In this document: piece after piece, positions 46,522 to 62,393 of the stretch
Numbering within the stretch: position 1 is the stretch's first letter
Layout of the letters: each line of letters opens with the position of its first letter
Source: Dehalococcoidia bacterium
GTDB taxonomy: Bacteria > Chloroflexota > Dehalococcoidia > Lucifugimonadales > UBA3495
DNA: 64,000 nt
Direction: 5' to 3'
Assembly: GCA_003523055.1 (NCBI GenBank)
Contig: DPHC01000005.1
Span: forward strand, 152,281 to 216,280
Program-made: the position numbers and the translations under genes
The notes under the pieces: generated by a model
What the model was told of the DNA's origin: nothing
The model's input: only the letters and a program-made list of their open reading frames with translations
The model's database searches: none

Positions 46522-46651
46522 AACCCAATACATGTTAATACATGTGTAGTAACACTCAAGTAACACAAATATATGATAATAACTTAGTGGGATTATATAT
46601 ATGCTCGTTATCGGGCAAAAAAAATCAAATCTAAACAAGGAGAAACGCTAT

Positions 46652-49132
46652 ATGGCAAAGAAAATTGGTTTCAAACTATCTTTACCTATAATGACCGCAG
46701 TCGTTATAGGCGTGTTGGCTTTAATGGTCAGCATGGGAATGTTCTCTGGCCAAAAAGTTGTAGCTAACGATATAGCACCTGAATTAGATGGAGTTAGAAC
46801 TGGAGGCAGCCCATTGGCAGCCCCAGCAGCGGCACAAACTATGTCCGCTGGTGGAACATCTTCAGTAACGATTACTCCACCTGAAGTTGGTGCAACCGCA
46901 AAAATCGTTATAAGCACTGGTACAGGAACAACCGCCATACTTGAAGGTGATATTATCACCCTCAGAATGGAAAGCGTTTTTGGAGTACCTACTTCGATAG
47001 CAACATCTGATATTATTATGACATCTTCCACAGTGTCAAACGTATCTGGTGCCGCTAACGTAAGAGTTAACCCTAAAAACGTTACTGTGGAATTCACAGG
47101 GCAAAAACTAAACACCGCATTGATACACCTAGAGGTTCCAGACATGGACCCAACGACAGCTGGTTCTGGTGGTTCAATGATGTCAGGTTCACAGGGCATA
47201 GGAACTGCCTCGACTCTCGCGATTACGATCGGACAGTCTGCAGGTATTACTAACCCTACTGAAGCTGACTCTCCTACCGTAGGAGTATCCGCTAACTTAG
47301 CATCAGGCGCTGAGTATGCTGGCATAATAACTACAGCCGGTACATCACTCCCACGAAAACTAACCTCAAGTACTACTGGTACTTCTAGAGGCGGTTCAGT
47401 GACTGTTACTGGTTATGGTTTCAAAAATTCAACAACAGCTACCGTCTGGTTGGACAGTAACAACAACAAGACCAGAGACGCTGGTGAAGTTGACTTAGCT
47501 GAAGCAGTTGTCGCATCTGATGACACCTTCTCAGCTACATTCAGCTTAGCTGTACCACCATTTTCTGTCAGCGCTACCAACTATGTCAGCGCAATTGACG
47601 GAAAAGGTTCAGTAACTAACGCTAACATTACTATAAGTGTGTCTGATAAAATTATTATCAGCCCTACTACAGCAGCAGTTGGCGAAACAATCCAAATTAC
47701 CATGCAAGATTTCCCTGCAAGCCACTATGTAGTTTCAGGTGCAAATGGAGCAGTTAAATTTGGTTCAGTTAGTGCAACTGTTCAAAGCAACACAATCATT
47801 CAAGTAGGCGCTGATGGAAGTGCTGTATTTGACGTAACTATTCCAAACGCAGCAAGAACTGGTACGCAAGCAGTATATGTATATGCTGACGCAAACCAGG
47901 ACTCTACTATTTCGGGAGCAAGTGCATCAGCTAATATAACTATTACTGGAGCAACTTTGACCGCAACACCTAACGCAATAGTTCCTAACCAAACTGTTAA
48001 CTTACAAGGATCAGGCTGGACAGATGGTGGCTCTGCTACTATTAACGCAGCTTCTGATACTTCAGTAATTAGTTTGGGTGGTTCAACAACTGGTTTAAGA
48101 GCAACTGGAGCAGCAGCTATCAGTGCAATTAACGCCGGTAATGGATCAATCACCGTAGATAACGGCGGAAACTGGAGTGGCCCTGTGGTTATTCCAATGA
48201 CAGCTGGATCTATGAATGGTGGAACTCAAATATTAGAAGTAACTGACAACGGTGGACGAACTGGTAATGCTGAATTGACAATCGCTTCTAGAGCATTGGC
48301 TATTAGCCCAGCTTCCAGCGGGTTAGGTACTACTATTACAGTAGACGGTACTGGTTACCCAGCAGAGAACTCCTCAACTGGAGCTGCTACTGCACCAACA
48401 GTAACTATGACCTATTACTATGGTTCATCCTCTAAGAATGTGGCTACATTCACCCCAGACGGAACAGGAGCATTTAGTGGAACATTTACAGTACCTTTGG
48501 ATGCACCAATTCCATCTGATAACTTAGTAAAATCTGCATTTAGCTATACACCATCCGGTGGAGCAGCTACTACAGTTACTAATACTGTTTCCCATTCAGT
48601 ACCAACCGCTAGCTTGAGCACTTCAGCTTCTGCAGGCGCAGCTGGTACTAAATTAACCATCACTGGCTCTGGATTTAAGGCTTACTCAACTGTAACTACT
48701 TTGACAGTAGGTGGAGTTGATGCACGACCTGCTCCAGTACCGGCAACAAATGGAAACGGCGAATTAACCACTGAGATCATGGTTCCTTCACTTGCTGTAG
48801 GTTCACATGCAATCAGTATTACTATCGCTAGTACTACCGCAAGCGCTAACTTCTCAGTAACTTCCACTGGAATTTCTGCTGCAGCAAGTGACGCTATAGG
48901 TGATGCTATCGGTACACCTGTCGGAGACAACCTCGTTAGAGTGTTCGCATTCGACAACGCTACTAAGGACTGGTCATTCTATGACCCATCCCCAGATTTG
49001 GCAGACGCTAATACTTTGGCCAACGTTGCAGCTGGTTCTGTATATTGGATAAAGACATTGGAAGACGCTACAGTAGCATTAAATGGAACTGACCGAGCAT
49101 TGTATGCCGGTTGGAACCTGGTATCTTATTAA
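46652..49132 (+). CDS. Large Cys-free, Thr/Ser/Ala/Gly-rich envelope protein with repeated Ig-like (IPT/TIG-type) modules; candidate S-layer or adhesin protein
   Basis: ORF track starts at 46601; the ATG at 46652 with a GGAG RBS is the more likely start. N-terminal KK + LPIMTAVVIGVLALMVSMGMF signal/anchor. Recurrent strand motif VTVTGYGF, IQITMQDF, VNLQGSGW, ITVDGTGY, LTITGSGF. No Cys in the translation. Distinct C-terminal about 70 aa (VFAFDNATKDWSFYDP...GSVYWIK...YAGWNLVSY). Confidence 0.75.
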   Translation: MAKKIGFKLSLPIMTAVVIGVLALMVSMGMFSGQKVVANDIAPELDGVRTGGSPLAAPAAAQTMSAGGTSSVTITPPEVGATAKIVISTGTGTTAILEGDIITLRMESVFGVPTSIATSDIIMTSSTVSNVSGAANVRVNPKNVTVEFTGQKLNTALIHLEVPDMDPTTAGSGGSMMSGSQGIGTASTLAITIGQSAGITNPTEADSPTVGVSANLASGAEYAGIITTAGTSLPRKLTSSTTGTSRGGSVTVTGYGFKNSTTATVWLDSNNNKTRDAGEVDLAEAVVASDDTFSATFSLAVPPFSVSATNYVSAIDGKGSVTNANITISVSDKIIISPTTAAVGETIQITMQDFPASHYVVSGANGAVKFGSVSATVQSNTIIQVGADGSAVFDVTIPNAARTGTQAVYVYADANQDSTISGASASANITITGATLTATPNAIVPNQTVNLQGSGWTDGGSATINAASDTSVISLGGSTTGLRATGAAAISAINAGNGSITVDNGGNWSGPVVIPMTAGSMNGGTQILEVTDNGGRTGNAELTIASRALAISPASSGLGTTITVDGTGYPAENSSTGAATAPTVTMTYYYGSSSKNVATFTPDGTGAFSGTFTVPLDAPIPSDNLVKSAFSYTPSGGAATTVTNTVSHSVPTASLSTSASAGAAGTKLTITGSGFKAYSTVTTLTVGGVDARPAPVPATNGNGELTTEIMVPSLAVGSHAISITIASTTASANFSVTSTGISAAASDAIGDAIGTPVGDNLVRVFAFDNATKDWSFYDPSPDLADANTLANVAAGSVYWIKTLEDATVALNGTDRALYAGWNLVSY

Positions 49133-49149
49133 AGTAAGGCTAGGACATG

Positions 49150-49186
49150 TTTGTGCAGAAAATAAACAACAGAAATTTTCTGCACA
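49150..49186 (+). terminator. 13-bp perfect hairpin downstream of the large surface-protein gene
   Basis: TTGTGCAGAAAAT (49150-49162) pairs with ATTTTCTGCACAA (49174-49186), with an 11-nt loop. No T-tract follows, so terminator function is uncertain. Confidence 0.45.
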
Positions 49187-49214
49187 AGTGTGCCTCTAAA
49201 ATTAGGAGGAATAG

Positions 49215-49832
49215 ATGAAAAAATTTAAAATCCTGGCCCTATTAGCTGTAATGGCGATTCTCTGGACGATCCCAGCAATGGCGTTCGCTCAAGAGGTTCC
49301 GCCTGCAGTGGTAATTGGAACAGCATCTAACAATGGAGTACCAGTCGCGGCTGGCACTACTATAACTGCTCACGTAAGTGGGTCAGATGTTGGATCTGCA
49401 AAAACCTCAGCTGGTGGCAAATTCCAAGTCACGGCTAAAGGGGTCAAAGGCGATACACTAACTTTTACAATTGGTGAAGCAACAGCTTCTGAATCTATAA
49501 AATTAGCTGATAATGGAGAAGTCTTGAGACAAGATCTTTCTGTTGGAGCTGGTAGTAGCGGGGCCGATGGATCCGCAGGTTCAAAAGGAGCTACAGGAGC
49601 TACAGGAGCTAAGGGAGATTCCGGAGCTAAAGGAGACACTGGCGCTGCCGGTGCTGCTGGAGCCGCTGGACCTTCTGGTGCTGCTGGTGCTGCTGGACCT
49701 GCTGGAGCCGCTGGTGCTAATGGTGCCGACGGAACTAGTGGTGGTGGAAGCATGGGTATAATTGCTTTGATACTCGCTATCGTAGCAATAGTTGTAGCCG
49801 GCGCTGGATTCTTCATGAGAAAACAGAGCTAA
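49215..49832 (+). CDS. Membrane-anchored collagen-like repeat protein (signal peptide, beta-rich head, Gly-X-Y stalk, C-terminal TM)
   Basis: MKKFKILALLAVMAILWTIPAMAFAQE signal. About 21 uninterrupted G-X-Y triplets (GSSGADGSAGSKGATGATGAKGDSGAKGDTGAAGAAGAAGPSGAAGAAGPAGAAGANGADGTS). IIALILAIVAIVVAGAGFFM TM followed by RKQS. GGAGG RBS. Confidence 0.8.
   Translation: MKKFKILALLAVMAILWTIPAMAFAQEVPPAVVIGTASNNGVPVAAGTTITAHVSGSDVGSAKTSAGGKFQVTAKGVKGDTLTFTIGEATASESIKLADNGEVLRQDLSVGAGSSGADGSAGSKGATGATGAKGDSGAKGDTGAAGAAGAAGPSGAAGAAGPAGAAGANGADGTSGGGSMGIIALILAIVAIVVAGAGFFMRKQS
49551..49748 (+). repeat. Collagen-like Gly-X-Y coding repeat tract, including a 27-nt tandem duplication
   Basis: Strict 9-nt/3-codon periodicity. 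49650-49676 and 49677-49703 are identical at 24 of 27 positions (my count). GGAGCTACA is repeated at about 49587-49610. Confidence 0.8.
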
Positions 49833-49854
49833 TCTACCGAAATCACCAAGCAAG

Positions 49855-49889
49855 ATAGGGGCTTCCGATACGGAGGCCCCTATTTTTTT
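49855..49889 (+). terminator. Rho-independent terminator
   Basis: 13-bp stem ATAGGGGCTTCCG / CGGAGGCCCCTAT (one G-U pair), ATA triloop, then a run of 7 T (49883-49889). Confidence 0.8.
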
Positions 49890-49946
49890 GTGTTGCGCAA
49901 GAGGCTGATCTGATACAATTTGATTAGGATGGGCAGGAGGACGGGA

Positions 49947-50732
49947 ATGAATAAATTGTTGAAACACTTCGCGGTTGCTGGTGTTGTGTGTGTATTTATT
50001 ATGACGTCTCCCAATGTGAAGGCTGATGAACCGGGTACTGTAGTAATTAACTCAACTTTGTTCGAAAGTGCAACCGTAACTATTGATCCCGTTGAGGTAT
50101 TCCCTGGGGCCAAAGTAATGATAACTGGGACTAATTTTCCGAGCGACAGTCCGGTGAGCCAAGGGCATGTTTCATACCGGTATGGAGAATCTCAAACTCA
50201 ATGCGAAGTCCTCGGAGGATATGAAGTTGGGATAGATAAAGGGTTTGTATTTGAGTTCCAAATCCCTTTACAAGCAGGGATTGGCGAACAGGAATATGTT
50301 TATTTAAATAGAGGGTGCGTGAAACCGGTTACAGATTATGTTCGTATACTTGTTTCAGCCTATGAAATACCCCAAGCCAACGTACAAATTGATGATAATG
50401 TAAACAAACTAGAACCTACCGTAGTTCATGAACAATCTACAGATCCAGCGGTCACGATGTGGCAGCAAGGAGTAACTGGAAGGATTGGGCCCAAAGGTGA
50501 TCAAGGAATAACTGGACCAAAAGGTGAAACTGGCCAGAAAGGTGATACCGGCGAGAAAGGTAATATTGGTCTTAAAGGGGATATAGGACCGAAAGGTGAT
50601 ATTGGCCAGATTGGAGAAACAGGGCCACAAGGAGTTGTAGGACCAGCAATCGGGAGCACGATTGCTCTCATTCTGTCCATTGTGGCGCTAGTAGTAGCCA
50701 TAAGTGGATTGATATCGAAAAGATGGATGTGA
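49947..50732 (+). CDS. Second membrane-anchored collagen-like repeat protein with an IPT/TIG-like head
   Basis: ORF track starts at 49920; the ATG at 49947 preceded by GGAGGA is the more likely start. Signal MNKLLKHFAVAGVVCVFIMTSPNVKA. Head contains VTIDPVEVFPGAKVMITGTNF. About 20 G-X-Y triplets (GVTGRIGPKGDQGITGPKGETGQKGDTGEKGNIGLKGDIGPKGDIGQIGETGPQGVVGPA). TM STIALILSIVALVVAISGLI followed by SKRWM. Confidence 0.8.
   Translation: MNKLLKHFAVAGVVCVFIMTSPNVKADEPGTVVINSTLFESATVTIDPVEVFPGAKVMITGTNFPSDSPVSQGHVSYRYGESQTQCEVLGGYEVGIDKGFVFEFQIPLQAGIGEQEYVYLNRGCVKPVTDYVRILVSAYEIPQANVQIDDNVNKLEPTVVHEQSTDPAVTMWQQGVTGRIGPKGDQGITGPKGETGQKGDTGEKGNIGLKGDIGPKGDIGQIGETGPQGVVGPAIGSTIALILSIVALVVAISGLISKRWM
50469..50648 (+). 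repeat. Collagen-like Gly-X-Y coding repeat tract
   Basis: Uninterrupted G-X-Y periodicity with Lys/Asp/Glu/Pro in the X and Y positions. Confidence 0.8.
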
Positions 50733-50738
50733 ACTAGG

Positions 50739-51317
50739 ATGAAGGGTAAGCTAAAAATAACTGTATTTTGTACTCTTGGTTTGGTTTTATTGTGTATTTC
50801 AGCTGGCCCTAAACAAGAATCAGTCCCCCCTCAACCCTTTTATGCAGATTTCTATACTGGAACAGTAAGAGTGCAGGGAACCATACCCGAATTACCGATA
50901 GTTCTTTACGCTTGTGTTGTAAGTTGTGACCGAGAAGGCTTTAAAAGCCGTACCATCGCAGTAGGTCCTGATGGGACCTACGATAATTTACACGTTGATC
51001 CGTCAAATAAAAAATATTTGTATCAAATAGTGACATTTTATTTAGAAACCCCATTTGGAAATATAATGGCAAATGAACATGCAATTATGGAAGGAGCATT
51101 CAGCCGTAATAGGTTGGACTTAACATTTTCTGACCCGGTACCAGTATTTGTGCCTGTAGTTATCCCAGATGAGATAATAGTTCCTGAAACAGAACTACCG
51201 AGTGTCGGAGGACCGATGAATTTTATCAAGTATGTTAAATTCATCGGTTTTATAGGCGTCACTTTATGTTTATTAGGATTAGTGTTCGGGGTTAAAAGTA
51301 CACGATACAGATGTTAA
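50739..51317 (+). CDS. C-terminally anchored envelope protein with an LPSVG motif before the TM segment
   Basis: Signal-like MKGKLKITVFCTLGLVLLCISAG. Beta-rich head (PFYADFYTGTVRVQGT...). Pro/Val-rich linker (PVPVFVPVVIPDEIIVPETE). LPSVGG (51195-51212), then TM FIGFIGVTLCLLGLVFGV and a basic KSTRYRC tail. Starts 6 nt after the previous stop. Confidence 0.65.
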   Translation: MKGKLKITVFCTLGLVLLCISAGPKQESVPPQPFYADFYTGTVRVQGTIPELPIVLYACVVSCDREGFKSRTIAVGPDGTYDNLHVDPSNKKYLYQIVTFYLETPFGNIMANEHAIMEGAFSRNRLDLTFSDPVPVFVPVVIPDEIIVPETELPSVGGPMNFIKYVKFIGFIGVTLCLLGLVFGVKSTRYRC

Positions 51318-51967
51318 TTTGATAAAATTTTGCCTTGCGGATTCAACACATTCAATTCCATATTAGCATTTTCCACGTTAGTTTTTGATAATGTTATGCG
51401 ATTTTGTCTGGTTACTTCACTTTTACCTAATTTACTTAGGAACGGTTCTAGTTCTACATTATTGATGTCGGATCCTGGAGTATTGTATTGCATAGGAATA
51501 ACGATTCCAGGTTCAAGATCCTGAATAACTTGTAATATATCGTCAACTTCTAATGTATTTGGCCCCCCAACAGGAGTTAACAGGACGTCACAAGGACTCA
51601 ACTCATCTATTTGGTTTGGAGTCAGAGGCTTTTTAATATCGCCTAAATGGCAAATATTGAGTCCTCCAATTTTGATATTGTATGCGATGTTACGATTTTC
51701 TACGTCTTCTTCATCTCCTAAAGGAGTCATTACGCCAGTGACGGAAATGCCAGCGTACTCATATTCTCCAGAAGAGTTAAATATCACCGGGTTACCAGAT
51801 ATTATTTCAGTATTATTATGATAATCACTCACATTACTCACTGTTATTATTGATGATTTCAGATCATTCAATTCCAATCCTATGGAATCTGGGAATGGGT
51901 TGGTTATAGCCATTATTTCGTTGTCTCTGAGTTGAAAACATCCATGTCCGATCCATGTTATATCCAT
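51314..51967 (-). CDS. MBL-fold metal-dependent hydrolase (UPF0173-like)
   Basis: MDITWIGHGCFQL start, and HxGD-like (CHLGD). Confidence 0.7.
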   Translation of the reverse strand: MDITWIGHGCFQLRDNEIMAITNPFPDSIGLELNDLKSSIITVSNVSDYHNNTEIISGNPVIFNSSGEYEYAGISVTGVMTPLGDEEDVENRNIAYNIKIGGLNICHLGDIKKPLTPNQIDELSPCDVLLTPVGGPNTLEVDDILQVIQDLEPGIVIPMQYNTPGSDINNVELEPFLSKLGKSEVTRQNRITLSKTNVENANMELNVLNPQGKILSN

Positions 51968-59182: not shown

Positions 59183-60826
59183 TTATGTCCTGTAAACTAA
59201 GAGCGCCCGGTTGGGATCTTTCCCTTTGCTAATGGAACTTAAGTTCATGCGATCAATTTGAATATGCTGCAGCCTTCTAACATATGAACGCTGAGGGTTC
59301 AGCAACACACTGAATGTCCCACTTAATACCTCGTTGGCAGCGTCCTCAGCCTCTTTTAGAGCTTCTTGGAGGATATCTGATGAGTTAGTGTCAGGGCTGC
59401 TTAGTTGGCTTCTTTGAATTGGGTTGAAGTCTATGCCTTGTTCTTTGGCTAATGTACTTAGGAAATCTAATATATGGTGGAATGTATTTTTCCTTAATAC
59501 ATATACAGGTGTTCCAGTAGATTCAGCGCTTTTTACCAAGTTGGACCCACGTCTGTAATGTGTTTTGGTGGTAAGTACAATATCAGAATTTCTTAATTCG
59601 TTACTTAGAGTAAGCGTTAGGTTAGACTCCTCTTGCGCCGCAAGAATTTTATCTTTACTGACTCCAAAAAGGAATACTTTATAGTCCAATTTTCGTACAG
59701 GAGCTAAGGATGATTTGTTAGGAGCTATTTGGGCGGTTGAGCTGGTTCTTTTAGTTGCTTGCATATCCCAAGAACCGTTTTGTTGTTGGTTTTGCCTGAC
59801 GGTGTCTTTCGATTTTACCAACTCACCGTTTTCGTCCGTAACACGCGATTCAGGGTATATTGCATAACCTCGTAGCCATTGGTCTACGACTTCGGCGACA
59901 TTATCATGGACATCTATTTCATTCCAGCTTTTAATTTCTACAACTATATCGAAAGTGGGCCATGATTTTCGTTCTTGGATTGTCTTTTGTGTTCCCCTAA
60001 ATTTGGCTTCTTGATCTCCTAACGTTACAGATTGAATTCCGCCTACTAGGTCGGATAATGTTGGATTAAAGATCAGGTTTTCAAGAGTATTGCCATGAGC
60101 TGTTGCGACTAACTGGACTCCTCTTTCTGCAATTGTTCTAGCCGCATCAGATTCCTCTGTAGTGCTCATTTCGTCAATAATAATAACCTCAGGCATATGA
60201 TTTTCTACAGCTTCTATCATGACAGCATGTTGGTGCTTGGGACTTGCTACTTGCATTCGTCTAGATGATCCTATAGCTGGATGAGGTACATCTCCATCTC
60301 CGGCAATTTCATTTGATGTATCCACTATTACTACTCGCTTACTAAGATCATCAGAAATCATACGAGCTGTTTCTCTTAACATAGTGGTTTTACCAACACC
60401 GGGGCGACCAAGTAAAAGTATATTTTGTCCGGTTTGAATTAAATCCTCTATGGTCATCGCACTACCATTAATTGCTCTACCAACTCTGCAAGTTGCGCCA
60501 ACAATGTGCCCTCTGCGGCTCCGTATTACTGAAACTCTGTGCAGAGTGCCTTCAATACCTGCGCGATTGTCTTCTCCTATAAATCCTATTTTCTGAACTA
60601 AATTATCTAGGTCATCTGAAGTGATTGGCTCTTGATTTAATGTGATATTTTCTCCAGTGAATCGTGCTTCTGGAAGCCTTCCTAAATCCAAAATGACTTC
60701 CAATAGGCTAGATTTGTTAGTTAGGGAATTTATTTTTGCCGTGATGTGGTCTGGTAAAACTTGTAAAAGCCGATTCAATTCATTTAGGTTTTGGTCTGAA
60801 TTCTCAATACGGTCCGATGTTAACAA
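59183..60826 (-). CDS. AAA+ ATPase with C-terminal R3H nucleic-acid-binding domain (SpoIIIAA/Ycf45-like)
   Basis: LLGRPGVGKTTMLRE (Walker A), IIIDE (Walker B), and a C-terminal ...RSYVRRLQH... R3H-like segment. Confidence 0.7.
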   Translation of the reverse strand: MLTSDRIENSDQNLNELNRLLQVLPDHITAKINSLTNKSSLLEVILDLGRLPEARFTGENITLNQEPITSDDLDNLVQKIGFIGEDNRAGIEGTLHRVSVIRSRRGHIVGATCRVGRAINGSAMTIEDLIQTGQNILLLGRPGVGKTTMLRETARMISDDLSKRVVIVDTSNEIAGDGDVPHPAIGSSRRMQVASPKHQHAVMIEAVENHMPEVIIIDEMSTTEESDAARTIAERGVQLVATAHGNTLENLIFNPTLSDLVGGIQSVTLGDQEAKFRGTQKTIQERKSWPTFDIVVEIKSWNEIDVHDNVAEVVDQWLRGYAIYPESRVTDENGELVKSKDTVRQNQQQNGSWDMQATKRTSSTAQIAPNKSSLAPVRKLDYKVFLFGVSKDKILAAQEESNLTLTLSNELRNSDIVLTTKTHYRRGSNLVKSAESTGTPVYVLRKNTFHHILDFLSTLAKEQGIDFNPIQRSQLSSPDTNSSDILQEALKEAEDAANEVLSGTFSVLLNPQRSYVRRLQHIQIDRMNLSSISKGKDPNRALLVYRT

Positions 60827-60923
60827 TAATCCTCCAGATTCTTTATATACTCACTGTGTGAATATTATAAAAGGTTTTATTTCAGTTTTTGTATCTGCGA
60901 GTGTCACGGGGTTTGGAGTATGT

Positions 60924-61487
60924 TTAAATGGTCAAAAAATATTTATGGACTCTTGAATCGTTTGATAATTCGGGATGGAATGATGTGGCGAATAGATTTT
61001 GTTGTCTAACCGCAACAGGTCTTTCATCATTTAATGAGGCTATAGTAGTAACTTTTTTGCCAGTGTTTATAACCTGAGGAGCTCGTATAAATATGCAATT
61101 AAATGGATCTTCAATGCCTTCTATGTTTAAAGATTGTTCGAAGCTATCTATTTGCCTACCAAAAGCATTTCTTTGTACTTCTATGTCCATTAATTTAAGA
61201 GGAATTGGGTCTTGTTCTGTGATTTTGGTTGCCATCATTATCATTCCAGCACATGTGCCCCAGATGGGCATGCCTTGCTCTGATAGTTTTAATAATGGAT
61301 CTCTAAACCCATAATTTGAGCAAAGTCTGCTTAATGTCGTGCTTTCCCCTCCCGGTATCACAAGCCTATCAATTTTGGTTAATTGTTCGGGAAGTCTGAC
61401 TTTTGTGCAGGTTACTCCCAGGGATTCAAACACAGTTTTATGTTCTTCAAAATCCCCTTGGAGAGCTAGGACGCCTACAGTACTCAC
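60924..61487 (-). CDS. pdxT: Pyridoxal 5'-phosphate synthase glutaminase subunit PdxT
   Basis: VGVLALQGDF, IPGGESTT, GTCAGMI (catalytic Cys), FHPEL. Confidence 0.92.
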   Translation of the reverse strand: MSTVGVLALQGDFEEHKTVFESLGVTCTKVRLPEQLTKIDRLVIPGGESTTLSRLCSNYGFRDPLLKLSEQGMPIWGTCAGMIMMATKITEQDPIPLKLMDIEVQRNAFGRQIDSFEQSLNIEGIEDPFNCIFIRAPQVINTGKKVTTIASLNDERPVAVRQQNLFATSFHPELSNDSRVHKYFLTI

Positions 61488-61502
61488 TCGATGAATCCTA
61501 GG

Positions 61503-62393
61503 CTATTTGCTTCGTGAGGCTAATAATTGATCTTCAGGAATACTTCTTGCACTGATCCCAACCATAGCTTCACCAAGATCTTTAGATACATCTGCAAGAA
61601 TTTTGTAATCTTCAAAATGTGTCACTGCTTGAACTATTGCATCAGCTCGCCTAGCAGGATCACCAGATTTAAAAATGCCAGAGCCTACAAATACTCCATC
61701 AGCCCCCAGGTGCATCATTAATGCCGCATCAGCTGGTGTTGCTACCCCACCGGCTGCAAAGTTTACGACTGGTAGCCTTCCTAATTCTTTTGTTTGAATT
61801 AAAAGTTCAACGCTGACACCTAAATCTCTTGCTTCAACTACTAGTTCGTCATCAGGCATATTTTGTAACTTTCTTATGTTGTCTTGGACCGTTCTCATGT
61901 GCCTAACAGCTTCAACGACGTCTCCTGTTCCTGCTTCTCCCTTTGTTCTGATCATTGTGGCTCCCTCAGAGATCCTTCTTAGGGCTTCCCCTAAATCACG
62001 ACACCCACACACAAAAGGTACAGTAAAATCGTGCTTCCAAACATGATGTTTTTCATCTGCTAATGTTAGTACTTCTGATTCATCTATATAGTCTATTCCT
62101 AATGATTCAAGAATTTTTGCTTCTACGAAGTGCCCGATTCTACATTTAGCCATCACAGGAATACTTACTGTATCCATTATTTCCAATATTATTGATGGGT
62201 CAGTCATCCTGGCAACTCCGCCTTCAGCACGGATATCAGCAGGGACTCTTTCAAGTGCCATAACCGCTACTGCTCCAGCTTCGGCTGCTATCTTGGCTTG
62301 TTCTGGATTAACTACATCCATAATAACGCCGCCTTTAAGCATTTGAGCGTGTCCTGATTTAACTGTGAATGTTCCTATGCGAGTATCTGCCAT
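61503..62393 (-). CDS. pdxS: Pyridoxal 5'-phosphate synthase lyase subunit PdxS
   Basis: [55 protein letters not shown]. Confidence 0.96.

Follow-up and report, generated by a model that had tools for sequence, protein, structure and literature searches.

A precedent for the reading proposed here is the surface (S-) layer of Sulfolobus, where a trimeric stalk protein carries the beta-rich canopy (PMC10903991). The stalk protein has N-terminal beta-sandwich heads and a C-terminal transmembrane (TM) helix, and its heads contact a terminal domain of the canopy protein, SlaA (PMC10903991). SAR202 genomes lack peptidoglycan synthesis, and in strain JH545 a layer outside the membrane has been seen by TEM (PMC10444878). 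One study states that slaA and slaB are "found" in SAR202 (PMC11994032); we were unable to trace these genes, and our literature search turned up no paper (PMC5395668 included) that gives the name of a SAR202 S-layer protein which can be verified. SAR202 is an abundant marine group. In the current study, we analyzed one locus from the Dehalococcoidia and propose, with a probability of roughly 50%, that two of its genes encode a two-component cell-envelope module of the peptidoglycan-less SAR202 bacteria which works like archaeal SlaA/SlaB.

Gene order and inheritance

In the window (the whole 64,000-nucleotide stretch of DNA that was analyzed; 36% GC), four ORFs, here called G1 to G4, lie on the + strand, each with a Shine-Dalgarno sequence, and a domain layout could be established for every encoded protein. 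An earlier note on this DNA had described the same four ORFs, and we recovered them at the same coordinates. It had also failed to match them to any named system; Pfam, NCBIfam, PHROGs and PDB sequence and fold searches likewise returned generic matches only. Housekeeping genes flank the locus in an order that is conserved, and the arrangement rho-G1-G2-(G3)-G4-MBL-BioY is kept in clades spanning 36% to 61% GC. GC3 of the core genes (0.28-0.29) is like that of the remainder of the window, which marks them as native, and the G1-G2 module is vertically inherited; IS605-type elements surround the pair in one high-GC clade. The earlier note had treated the four genes as a single ensemble tied together by shared modules. 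This did not hold: conservation is unequal, G3 being lineage limited and G4 missing in some clades, and the shared-module argument fails for G4 versus G2. The conserved core of the locus is G1 plus G2.

G1 and its C-terminal domain

46549..46577, + strand: weak sigma-70-like promoter candidate upstream of G1 (GTAACA-17-TATGAT; 9/12 consensus positions)
46652..49132, + strand: G1, secreted Ig-like domain array of 826 aa, candidate canopy subunit (AAGGAG Shine-Dalgarno)
48884..49129, + strand: CTD, C-terminal domain of G1, ~80 aa, proposed docking module (motif NLVRVF.FDNAT..W.FYDP ... GWNLVSY)

The promoter candidate serves as a position marker only, the consensus scan upstream of G1 yielding no more sites than shuffles did. 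G1 comprises a signal (aa 1-38), a linker (39-69), six or seven beta-sandwich domains (70-738) and the CTD (745-826). As had been noted before, the protein is free of Cys (0 residues) and rich in Thr, Ala, Ser and Gly, which account for 50% of the sequence; the protein has a pI of 4.3-4.5 and carries 13 NxS/T sequons, 2.5 times background. The N-terminal signal or anchor claimed for it is also borne out, with a hydrophobic segment at aa 5-34 (hydrophobic stretch of ~23 residues) and a predicted cleavage site, Ala38, that at least 90% of relatives retain. Four copies of the strand motif x-[VILT]-x-[VILT]-x-G-x-[GN]-[FYW] are present (aa 250, 449, 562 and 668), with 0.09 expected from shuffles; at least five such TIG-type motifs had been counted previously, and the fifth requires a degenerate copy. 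As to the Ig folds themselves, Pfam TIG scores above its cut-off once (aa 655-733; 22.5 versus 20.9 bits), and the AF2 model is all beta, with six or seven sandwich domains (pLDDT 73). Foldseek searches with this model gave generic multi-Ig matches, the archaeal S-layer proteins 7ptp and 8c8o among them. Such multi-Ig chains are just as characteristic of adhesins.

The Trp/Tyr-rich end domain that the earlier note had singled out is real and belongs to a large family: a profile search with the CTD found 1,876 cluster representatives at an E value of ≤1e-3 and 488 at ≤1e-10, and the domain reaches to within 0-1 aa of the protein C terminus in 155/186 cases. It has no Pfam entry, its Trp and Tyr residues are conserved, and its AF2 model, built on a 50-sequence alignment, is confident (pLDDT 93.7, pTM 0.84) and has no structural neighbors in the PDB or BFVD (best E value, 0.2-0.35). 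The CTD thus defines an uncurated family of ~1,900 clusters whose fold lacks a match in these two libraries. The other domains of CTD-bearing proteins are of the TIG, fn3, cadherin and BACON types, and in 12 of 148 family representatives, as well as in L003 6557-7456, the CTD is fused in one chain to head domains of the G2 type, a Rosetta-stone hint that head and CTD work together. Some CTD proteins are encoded at a distance from any stalk gene (L025) or as tandem copies, so the CTD may bind another partner in place of G2, for example a glycan or a second CTD.

G2 and the surrounding RNA elements

49146..49192, + strand: intergenic G1/G2 stem-loop, 18-bp stem, without a T-run (fold, conservation)
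49193..49209, + strand: small hairpin, CCUCU paired with the G2 Shine-Dalgarno sequence AGGAGG (fold prediction)
49215..49832, + strand: G2, stalk/anchor protein of 205 aa (Pfam Collagen, hydrophobic ends)
49852..49893, + strand: Rho-independent terminator after G2, 16-bp stem (49852-49886) with 8 GC pairs, T7 (terminator scan)

G2 consists of a signal (aa 1-25, AFA|Q), a beta head (26-112), a Gly-X-Y tract (113-178), a TM helix (180-201) and an RKQS tail. The tract holds 22 Gly-X-Y triplets and matches Pfam Collagen at 32 bits (cut-off, 27.2); because it is Ala rich, with just 2 Pro in 66 residues, the stability of a triple helix is uncertain. An HMM of the head family detects the G2 head in every related locus, and the core of the stalk TM helix, IIALI(L/V)AIVA, is conserved across clades. 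The hairpin seen earlier at 49150-49186 forms part of the 18-bp stem, which is conserved, with compensatory changes, in four relatives (L001, L006, L007 and L024) and has no Rfam match. The anti-Shine-Dalgarno hairpin is predicted in 5/5 related intergenic regions. Our scan recovered the canonical terminator placed earlier at 49855-49889, and a GC-rich hairpin with a T-run stands at the equivalent position in the same four relatives.

Co-occurrence and codon usage

A CTD-bearing G1 homologue lies directly upstream of a G2-type stalk gene at 20/20 loci (the window plus 19 others), and this adjacency persists down to 24-27% G1 identity. The stalk genes concerned all encode a signal, a G2-type head, 22-33 Gly-X-Y triplets and a TM helix. 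In the reverse direction, starting from the stalk TM motif, a CTD-bearing ORF ended just before the stalk gene in 21/21 metagenome loci with upstream DNA. Of the three G1 paralogues with a different C-terminal domain after the Ig array, none has a stalk gene. This all-or-none link across 41 informative loci is hard to explain without functional coupling of CTD and stalk. Sequence searches returned a small G1 family (35 clusters, 18 genome loci), and searches keyed on shared words or peptide patterns did not detect it in the cultured strain or in some SAR202 lineages; two or three paralogues are present in some large genomes, and several relatives are sponge-associated MAGs.

In the window genome, the NNC/(NNC+NNT) ratio of G1 is 0.53 versus a background of 0.22 (z = 8). 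Across four genomes the ratio is 0.53-0.65 for G1, 0.42-0.54 for G2 and 0.22-0.25 for other + strand genes; G1 shuns NNG in four-fold families and favors AAC, GAC, TTC and GGT. Judging from this strong codon signature, G1 and G2 are probably highly expressed.

G3 and G4

49947..50732, + strand: G3, lineage-specific second stalk protein of 261 aa (Pfam Collagen, TM)
50739..51317, + strand: G4, membrane-anchored accessory protein of 192 aa (hydrophobic at both ends)

G3 has a signal, an Ig-like head of ~150 aa, 20 Gly-X-Y triplets rich in KGD/KGE (Pfam Collagen, 38 bits; cut-off, 27.2), a TM helix and an SKRWM tail, so that the layout of signal, head, collagen-like tract and TM helix proposed earlier for G2 and G3 is correct for both. 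A TIG-like module shared by the G3 head and G1 had also been proposed; what remains of this is a weak similarity to a G1-family Ig domain (31% over 87 aa, E value of ~1e-3 in a small database). Just two G3 protein clusters were found among 5.8 billion sequences (100% and 76% identity). G3 occurs in L024, L027 and L028, is restricted to the window's species and the lineage at 94% G1 identity, and is absent from the 73% clade.

G4 starts 7 nt past the G3 stop and has a signal or lipobox-like N terminus, a head of ~110 aa with the motifs PPQPFYADFYTG and ACxxSC, a Pro-rich linker, an LPSVGG motif, a TM helix and a basic tail. Its C-terminal TM anchor is as previously described; the resemblance of its head to that of G2 lacks statistical support, hmmsearch finding no match at an E value of ≤10 and hhalign giving a probability of 3%. 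G4 has no match in Pfam, NCBIfam, PHROG or the PDB. A homologue comes immediately after the stalk gene(s) in L001, L006, L007 and L018, and the same applies to 15/15 metagenome loci that include downstream DNA; several clades conserve G4 along with the pair, and others lack it. Codon usage of G3 and G4 is at background and not optimized. The separate transcription units suggested by the earlier note therefore find support both in the conserved terminator behind G2 and in a codon signature that divides G1/G2 from G3/G4.

Discussion

We suggest that the G1-G2 pair is the best available candidate for the SAR202 surface layer. An S-layer-like coat on tethered stalks was among the earlier proposals, and strict adjacency, codon usage and host biology favor that hypothesis for G1 and G2. 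G2 would be exported and its signal then cleaved; its 22-triplet collagen-like tract would allow it to trimerize into a stalk of ~19 nm (66 residues × 0.286 nm), fixed in the cytoplasmic membrane by three C-terminal TM helices and topped by three small beta heads. G1, which is acidic, probably glycosylated and composed of six or seven Ig-like domains, would be secreted without a membrane anchor of its own, be retained on the cell through docking of its CTD to the G2 heads, and form the abundant outer coat, presumably as a lattice. Both genes would be cotranscribed at a high level in a unit closed by the strong terminator, and the G1:G2 ratio may be tuned by the intergenic stem-loop and set by the hairpin that masks the G2 ribosome-binding site. 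G3 (in the window's lineage only) and G4 (in several clades) would be lower-abundance tethered accessory proteins made from a separate unit.

The main rival to this coat model is an open array that serves adhesion or particle binding, a reading that we regard as possible, if rather doubtful. G2 to G4 would then be "lollipop" proteins with variable heads on stalks and G1 a large Ig-rich adhesin, directed at particles, polymers or host surfaces, and no lattice would form. The order of signal, head, collagen and anchor is indeed that of the streptococcal proteins Scl1 and Scl2, and NCBIfam Scl and Lcl models match the collagen tracts; however, they do so at 33-53 bits against cut-offs of 325-500, and the LPXTG motif is absent, the stalks here being held by a TM helix. 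The domains that make up CTD-bearing proteins are typical of adhesins, paralogues and sponge-associated relatives fit the same picture, and stalk heads differ by locus, being of the G2 type, Ig-like (G3) or of the G2 type plus Lipoprotein_15 (L010, L021 and L022). Yet the G2 head itself is conserved across clades and not diversified, and free-living lineages with streamlined genomes and few accessory genes retain the module (PMC11994032). Moreover, the codon signature of G1 and G2, together with their conserved core-genome position, is more what one would expect of a bulk structural protein than of an accessory adhesin.

It is unlikely that G1 and G2 are coexpressed without contact, with G1 held by an uncleaved N-terminal helix or by binding of the CTD to glycan or lipid and with G2 acting as a spacer or sensor. 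SLH domains bind wall polymers, and the conserved Trp/Tyr-richness of the CTD is as in sugar-binding modules. The hydrophobic stretch of G1 is long for a signal peptide and could instead be an uncleaved anchor, CTD proteins without a nearby stalk gene exist, and sialic-acid synthesis is encoded in SAR202 genomes (PMC5395668). Nevertheless, the constant pairing of the CTD with a downstream stalk gene, the head-CTD fusions and the conservation of Ala38 speak against this reading.

A further reading, in which the C-terminal helices act as sorting signals for cleavage by a putative enzyme resembling a sortase, rhombosortase or archaeosortase, seems improbable to us; it would modify the coat model, with which it is compatible, by attaching the proteins covalently to lipid or to each other. 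Stalk C termini run GGGG, TM helix, basic tail, and that of G4 LPx[VA]G[GD], TM helix, basic tail; both this tripartite layout and the TM sequences, which are unusually conserved, persist across clades with only 24-33% G1 identity. The haloarchaeal S-layer glycoprotein, which carries a PGF-CTERM signal (ArtA), offers a precedent. However, the sorting-signal models of NCBIfam and Pfam give no match, our analysis identified no processing enzyme, and the organism is without peptidoglycan, the substrate of classical sortases. An origin as prophage or phage-derived tail-fibre genes is highly improbable and already contradicted, since the PHROG tail-fibre families that match G2 and G3 (E values down to 7e-14) do so entirely inside Gly-X-Y tracts and G1 and G4 give no match, 2.9 million viral contigs contain no G1 relative, the CTD is without a BFVD match, and the locus combines housekeeping flanks in conserved order with native GC3 and host-adapted codon usage.

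We thus return to the coat model and its known counterparts. With S-layer glycoproteins G1 shares the typical composition (pI 4.3, without Cys, rich in Thr, Ser, Ala and Gly, and rich in sequons). With archaeal SlaA/SlaB the G1-G2 pair would share the combination of a canopy and a TM-rooted stalk, and it would differ in the stalk itself, which in G2 is proposed to be a collagen triple helix.

RESULTS

Organization and chromosomal setting of the locus

The four co-directional ORFs that the earlier note placed at 46601-51317 are present, and its observation was confirmed except for an alleged likeness of the fourth protein to the second. We refer to the genes and their proteins as G1 to G4:

46652-49132, + strand: G1, 826 aa, ORF with Shine-Dalgarno sequence
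49215-49832, + strand: G2, 205 aa, ORF with Shine-Dalgarno sequence
49947-50732, + strand: G3, 261 aa, ORF with Shine-Dalgarno sequence
50739-51317, + strand: G4, 192 aa, ORF with Shine-Dalgarno sequence
51314-51967, - strand: MBL-fold (Lactamase_B_3) gene, convergent to G4 and overlapping its end by 4 nt

The flanks are housekeeping genes, with CTP synthase, transaldolase and rho upstream of G1 and, downstream of G4, the convergent MBL-fold gene, BioY and then valS, aroE and aroC. GC content is 41-46% at the locus versus 33-40% across the window. Third codon positions in G1 and G2 have native GC (0.28-0.29); the GC excess thus stems from amino acid composition (Ala, Gly and Thr codons) and not from foreign origin, and an explanation of the elevated GC (0.45-0.50) by recent horizontal transfer was rejected. 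GC skew is positive in every 2-kb window of 1-64000 except 60001-62000.

The order rho-G1-G2-(G3)-G4-MBL-BioY is conserved from 36% to 61% GC, which argues that the module is old, vertically inherited core DNA. The MBL-fold gene itself is a conserved neighbor of the module across the same GC range (homologues in the related loci L010, L018, L021, L022, L032 and L038). The exception to the conserved position is one high-GC clade in which the G1-G2 pair lies amid IS605-type elements. In loci L002 to L005 (GC 61-63%), IS605 OrfB/TnpB-like, IS66 and rve genes surround the pair, and the reading frames of G1 and G2 are split in L004 and L005; given the low long-read coverage of these contigs (e.g., "3x"), the breaks may be sequencing errors and not pseudogenes.

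G1 and G2 are inherited as a pair

Relatives of G1 form 35 protein clusters, one of them named SAR202, and were found at 18 loci in Dehalococcoidia or Chloroflexota MAGs. In a forward test we considered the window and the 19 loci in which a G1 relative keeps the C-terminal domain (CTD, ca. 80 aa) and downstream DNA exists. The next gene encoded a G2-type stalk in 20/20, with a signal, a G2-type head, 22 to 33 Gly-X-Y triplets and a transmembrane (TM) helix. This adjacency persists down to 24-27% G1 identity, also in unrelated genomic contexts. As a negative control, none of three G1 paralogues lacking the CTD (same Ig array, other C-terminal domain; LRR+fn3+Big_12) has a downstream stalk gene. 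In the reverse test, the conserved stalk TM motif was searched in 241 million metagenome records and yielded 25 loci, four of them uninformative (three start inside the stalk gene and one is a short contig with two tandem stalk genes); in the 21 with upstream DNA, a CTD-bearing ORF ended just before the stalk gene every time.

The other two genes are less faithful companions. In the 73%-identity clade, L018 and 15/15 metagenome loci with downstream DNA, which include a clade at 57-58% GC, the gene after the stalk gene(s) is G4-like; in several high-GC clades no such gene was found. G3 is confined to the species of the window and one lineage whose G1 is 94% identical; among 5.8 billion proteins it forms two clusters. 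Co-conservation thus holds for G1 and G2 in every informative locus, for G4 in several clades and for G3 in one lineage.

The CTD-less paralogues (L011 4735-9210, L012 4456-9195 and L014 5656-9132), which have no adjoining stalk gene, end in a segment of the form GIPYDDDHDGxISKxEAIxAVxDYF with a DxDxDG calcium-loop-like motif, which by eye is dockerin- or EF-hand-like.

G1 is an Ig-like array with a distinct C-terminal domain

G1 begins with a hydrophobic segment in which Ala38 is kept in at least 90% of relatives. In the AF2 model (pLDDT 73) this segment leads through a linker of low confidence into six or seven beta-sandwich domains in an all-beta arrangement, and the CTD closes the chain. 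The composition noted earlier was borne out: G1 has no Cys, and Thr, Ala, Ser and Gly make up half of its residues. Its pI is 4.3, and it holds 13 NxS/T sequons (2.5 times background). The TIG-type strand motif is real, with four clear copies against a chance expectation of 0.09; the count of at least five in the earlier note requires one degenerate copy. A Pfam scan placed TIG (PF01833) at aa 655-733 (22.5 bits versus a gathering threshold of 20.9); this is the single domain above threshold, the remaining ones being Ig-like by model only, and PF01833 is precomputed for most G1 relatives. Foldseek with the full model returned generic multi-Ig proteins (alpha-2-macroglobulins, titin) at TM-scores of 0.1-0.2, with archaeal S-layer proteins at rank 3 (Haloferax) and rank 19 (Nitrosopumilus). 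Such matches are compatible with a surface array and are not diagnostic.

The distinct C-terminal domain that the earlier note had seen proved to extend across many proteins. Of 1.84 billion cluster representatives, a nine-sequence profile retrieved 1,876 at E ≤ 1e-3 (488 at E ≤ 1e-10), in carriers of 82 to 3,424 aa, and the domain ended within 1 residue of the C-terminus in 155/186 cases. Among 68 sampled carriers the accompanying domains were TIG (32/68), fn3, cadherin, BACON and similar, and the one enzyme domain was an isolated PPDK_N match. The family has no Pfam entry, and protein names across it were uninformative, one Cloacimonadota "PKD domain" name included. Modeled from a 50-sequence alignment, the CTD is compact and confident (pLDDT 93.7), with one helix and six strands, and has no structural neighbor in the PDB or BFVD (best E 0.2-0.35, TM-score ≤ 0.32). 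Two uncurated domain families, the CTD and the G2-type head, are defined by this work.

The only PDB sequence matches to the CTD profile were designed Kelch proteins (E = 2e-8), a score built up from six weak repeats of a single short motif; for natural Kelch proteins E was about 1. A Kelch blade or part of an oligomeric propeller was rejected, given this repeated-motif score, the helix-plus-six-strand model and the lack of any propeller match.

One or two G2-type heads are fused to a CTD in 12/148 representatives, a Rosetta-stone hint that head and CTD act together. Small secreted fusions of this kind occur at L003 6557-7456 (-) and L004 3297-4204 (-) and in the CTD-family representatives P0126, P0142, P0163, P0180 and P0199, and small proteins made of two tandem CTDs are found as P0065, P0067 and P0070. 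Within the proposed system, either kind might act as a cross-linker or a cap. One two-CTD protein lies far from any stalk gene, so the CTD is not bound to G2 genes everywhere.

The collagen-like stalks and G4

The signal, head, collagen-like tract and C-terminal TM helix ascribed to G2 and G3 were all recovered, with hydrophobic ends and Pfam Collagen (PF01391) at 32.0 bits in G2 and 38.2 bits in G3 (gathering cut-off, 27.2). G2 consists of a signal (AFA|Q), a head of ca. 87 aa, 22 Gly-X-Y triplets, a 22-residue TM helix and an RKQS tail. G3 follows the same order, but with another head of ca. 150 aa and 20 triplets, its tract being more canonical than that of G2 and rich in KGD/KGE. That the G3 head shares a module with G1 stands in part: it resembles the Ig domains of the G1 family, although weakly. 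A PDB sequence search with the G2 head gave nothing useful.

The Gly-X-Y tracts are encoded by tandem DNA repeats of period 9/18/27/36 (49586-49728 and 50513-50605), and triplet number differs between strains, as close G2 relatives range from 195 to 208 aa. The TM core (I/V)IALI(L/V)AIVA (G2 49752-49832; G3 50650-50732; stalk genes of L002 to L023) is kept between clades with only 24-33% identity in G1, and GGGG often precedes it; conservation beyond the need of a passive anchor points to packing of the helices within a trimer or to a processing enzyme that recognizes them. Some high-GC genomes carry two stalk genes in tandem (L010, L021, L022 and L043), and in three of these the second combines a G2-type head with a Lipoprotein_15 (PF03640) repeat before the collagen tract (L010 9905-11005, L021 9444-10547, L022 9440-10807), so stalk heads are modular.

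G4 has a signal-like N-terminus, a Cys-containing head of ca. 110 aa, a Pro-rich linker, an LPSVGG motif, and the expected TM anchor followed by a basic tail. Neither Pfam nor a PDB sequence search gave a useful match. The proposed kinship of its head with that of G2 was rejected: a 17-sequence head profile gave no hmmsearch match at E ≤ 10, and the hhalign probability was 3%. In the G4 family (window 50739-51317; L001 5159-5791; L032 1491-2123; L038 1279-1920) a conserved LPx[VA]G[GD] motif (LPSVGG, LPQVGG, LPVAGD) directly precedes the TM helix and Arg-rich tail; it recalls an LPXTG-type sorting signal, although the organism is without peptidoglycan. PPQPF[YF]xDF[YF]sG and ACxxxC are also conserved, and G4 relatives have an LSSC lipobox-like N-terminus.

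Codon usage and RNA elements set G1 and G2 apart

Third-position usage in this genome depends strongly on strand (NNC in two-fold pyrimidine codons is ca. 0.22 in + genes and ca. 0.30-0.45 in - genes), so codon bias can be compared only within one strand. In two-fold codons ending in a pyrimidine, + strand genes of the window use C rather than T at a fraction of 0.22 ± 0.04; for G1 the fraction is 0.53 (z = 8, Fisher p = 9e-17), for G2 it is 0.42, and the corresponding values in three relatives are 0.63-0.65 and 0.50-0.54. In four-fold families G1 also shuns NNG, and it favors AAC, GAC, TTC and GGT. Codon usage in G3 and G4 is at background, G3 being rich in G-ending codons. Under translational selection, such a codon pattern marks very highly expressed genes. 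Judged by this sequence proxy, high expression of G1 and G2 is strongly indicated in four genomes.

The RNA elements agree with this division. A strong terminator after G2 is conserved in all close relatives, which together with the codon signature upholds the separate transcription units proposed before. Between G1 and G2 lies a conserved stem-loop whose 18-bp stem shows compensatory changes, and in a small hairpin CCUCU pairs with the G2 ribosome-binding site, an arrangement that may set the G1:G2 ratio. An Rfam search of the locus returned nothing useful.

DISCUSSION

SAR202 bacteria are among the ocean's most abundant bacterial groups, and their S-layer has so far been inferred in papers only from sialic-acid genes or TEM images. 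Here, we describe a concrete two-gene candidate for their outer-layer protein(s). We have high confidence that G1 and G2 are a cofunctioning, highly expressed surface pair. We give roughly even odds to the further step, that they form an S-layer through docking of the CTD on the G2 head. On this reading, G2 stalks of ca. 19 nm, presumably trimeric and rooted by their TM helices, would hold secreted G1 through a CTD-head contact, and G1 would form an abundant outer coat. Of the original proposal that four proteins act together at the cell surface, with a stalk-tethered, S-layer-like coat as one option, the G1-G2 pair survives, while G3 and G4 are not equally conserved and the G4-G2 likeness has gone.

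SAR202 does not synthesize peptidoglycan, and the cultured strain JH545 shows a layer outside the membrane (PMC10444878). Another paper, under the heading "Cell wall structure of SAR202," states that the group carries slaA and slaB, with no gene identifiers traceable in its text or supplements (PMC11994032). In the literature on collagen-like or S-layer proteins in SAR202, Dehalococcoidia and Chloroflexi, we found no description of the G1-G2 pair.

An adhesin or particle-binding array made of "lollipop" proteins is the main rival; it is favored by the variable heads, the adhesin-type domains in CTD proteins, the sponge-associated relatives and the paralogues. Alternatively, G1 and G2 may be coexpressed without touching, the CTD binding a glycan or G1 retaining its N-terminal helix. 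The conserved C-terminal ends may also be processed sorting signals, given a TM helix and basic tail that follow GGGG in the stalks and LPx[VA]G[GD] in G4; this tripartite resemblance was judged by eye, however, and no NCBIfam or Pfam model of a known signal (LPXTG, PGF-CTERM, GlyGly-CTERM, PEP-CTERM) matched G2, G3 or G4 at E ≤ 1. A phage origin, including phage tail fibers, can be dismissed for practical purposes: PHROG matches fell only in Gly-X-Y tracts, none of 2.9 million viral contigs carried a G1 relative, BFVD held no CTD match, and the pair sits among housekeeping, not viral, genes.

If the docking model is true, this S-layer would be the first with a collagen-like stalk as its anchor, and it would be an instance of convergence of bacterial and archaeal envelopes. 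The predicted ca. 19-nm stalk, a predicted collagenase sensitivity and a defined putative docking domain offer experimental handles now that cultures exist. The S-layer question aside, the strict gene-pair rule offers a means of annotating numerous proteins now labeled "hypothetical" in MAGs of Chloroflexota.

Comparison with known systems

As the earlier note had said, the ensemble matches no named system; curated libraries gave TIG, Collagen, subthreshold Scl/Lcl and repeat-only PHROG matches. The grappling-hook filament protein GhlA of Litorilinea (49 DUF11 domains; PMC13319060) is set apart by family and size. The putative S-layer protein of Dehalococcoides mccartyi, of the same class and likewise without a peptidoglycan wall, is an abundant structural surface protein with BNR/Asp-box repeats (PMC6646388); its domain type differs, G1 has no BNR match, and no collagen-like partner is described there.

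The stalks share the "lollipop" order of signal, globular head, Gly-X-Y stalk and C-terminal anchor with Scl1/Scl2 (NF038329/NF038330) and Legionella Lcl (NF046116), along with the Pfam Collagen repeat and a triplet number that differs between strains. However, the heads are unrelated, G2 and G3 end in a TM helix, with no LPXTG motif found in stalk C-termini, whereas Scl is linked to peptidoglycan through LPXTG, and the G2 stalk gene is tied to an upstream partner; the NCBIfam models score the stalks at 24-53 bits against cut-offs of 325-500, with matches only in the repeat. Scavenger receptor A and MARCO, like the G2 model, are trimeric and use a collagen triple helix to space globular heads off the membrane, but they are eukaryotic type II proteins (N-terminal TM), G2 being type I, and there is no homology beyond the repeat.

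Like cohesin-dockerin and SLH display systems, the CTD is a small C-terminal module on many otherwise unrelated secreted proteins (about 1,900 clusters), and by analogy it could serve as a common docking tag. It has no sequence or fold relationship to either, and some proteins carry tandem CTDs. The S-layer proteins of Haloferax volcanii (csg, 7ptp) and Nitrosopumilus maritimus (8c8o) are, like G1, acidic, Thr/Ser- and sequon-rich Ig-like strings, but they anchor themselves by a C-terminal lipid or TM helix, whereas G1 has no anchor and would need a partner; their Foldseek likeness to G1 is generic (TM-scores 0.1-0.2, alpha-2-macroglobulins and titin alike).

The closest parallel is the S-layer of Sulfolobus, in which the SlaA canopy is carried by SlaB, a trimer with beta-sandwich heads, a coiled-coil stalk and a C-terminal TM helix (PMC10903991). 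SlaA structures are, according to their depositors, in the PDB (PMC10903991), and a profile of 20 G1 relatives run against all PDB sequences gave nothing below E = 0.3; with TIG and Collagen the only Pfam matches and SlaA absent among the 50 listed Foldseek matches of the G1 model, we found no sequence or fold homology to SlaA or SlaB. The likeness is by analogy and functional only. Canopy and anchor genes are adjacent and co-inherited (20/20 forward, 21/21 reverse); the outer protein is large, secreted, beta-sandwich rich and without a membrane anchor; the smaller partner has a signal, beta head(s), a long stalk predicted to trimerize and one C-terminal TM helix; peptidoglycan is missing from the host; and the predicted stalk length falls in the range of the archaeal pseudo-periplasm. 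The differences are a bacterial host, a G1 of 826 aa versus 1,424 for SlaA, a lattice that is hypothetical here, and a stalk of collagen-like Gly-X-Y triplets where SlaB has an alpha-helical coiled coil, so the layout of G2 is analogous to that of SlaB and not the same. We regard the locus as encoding a candidate S-layer of two components with a collagen stalk, along with two domain families that lack curation. More tentatively, and at present rather against the odds, one may imagine that SAR202 and its peptidoglycan-less relatives in the Dehalococcoidia have arrived by convergence at a bacterial counterpart of the SlaA/SlaB lattice as their surface layer, in which a membrane-rooted collagen triple helix would hold an Ig canopy via an undescribed docking domain, the CTD and G2-type head serving as a general plug-and-socket display.
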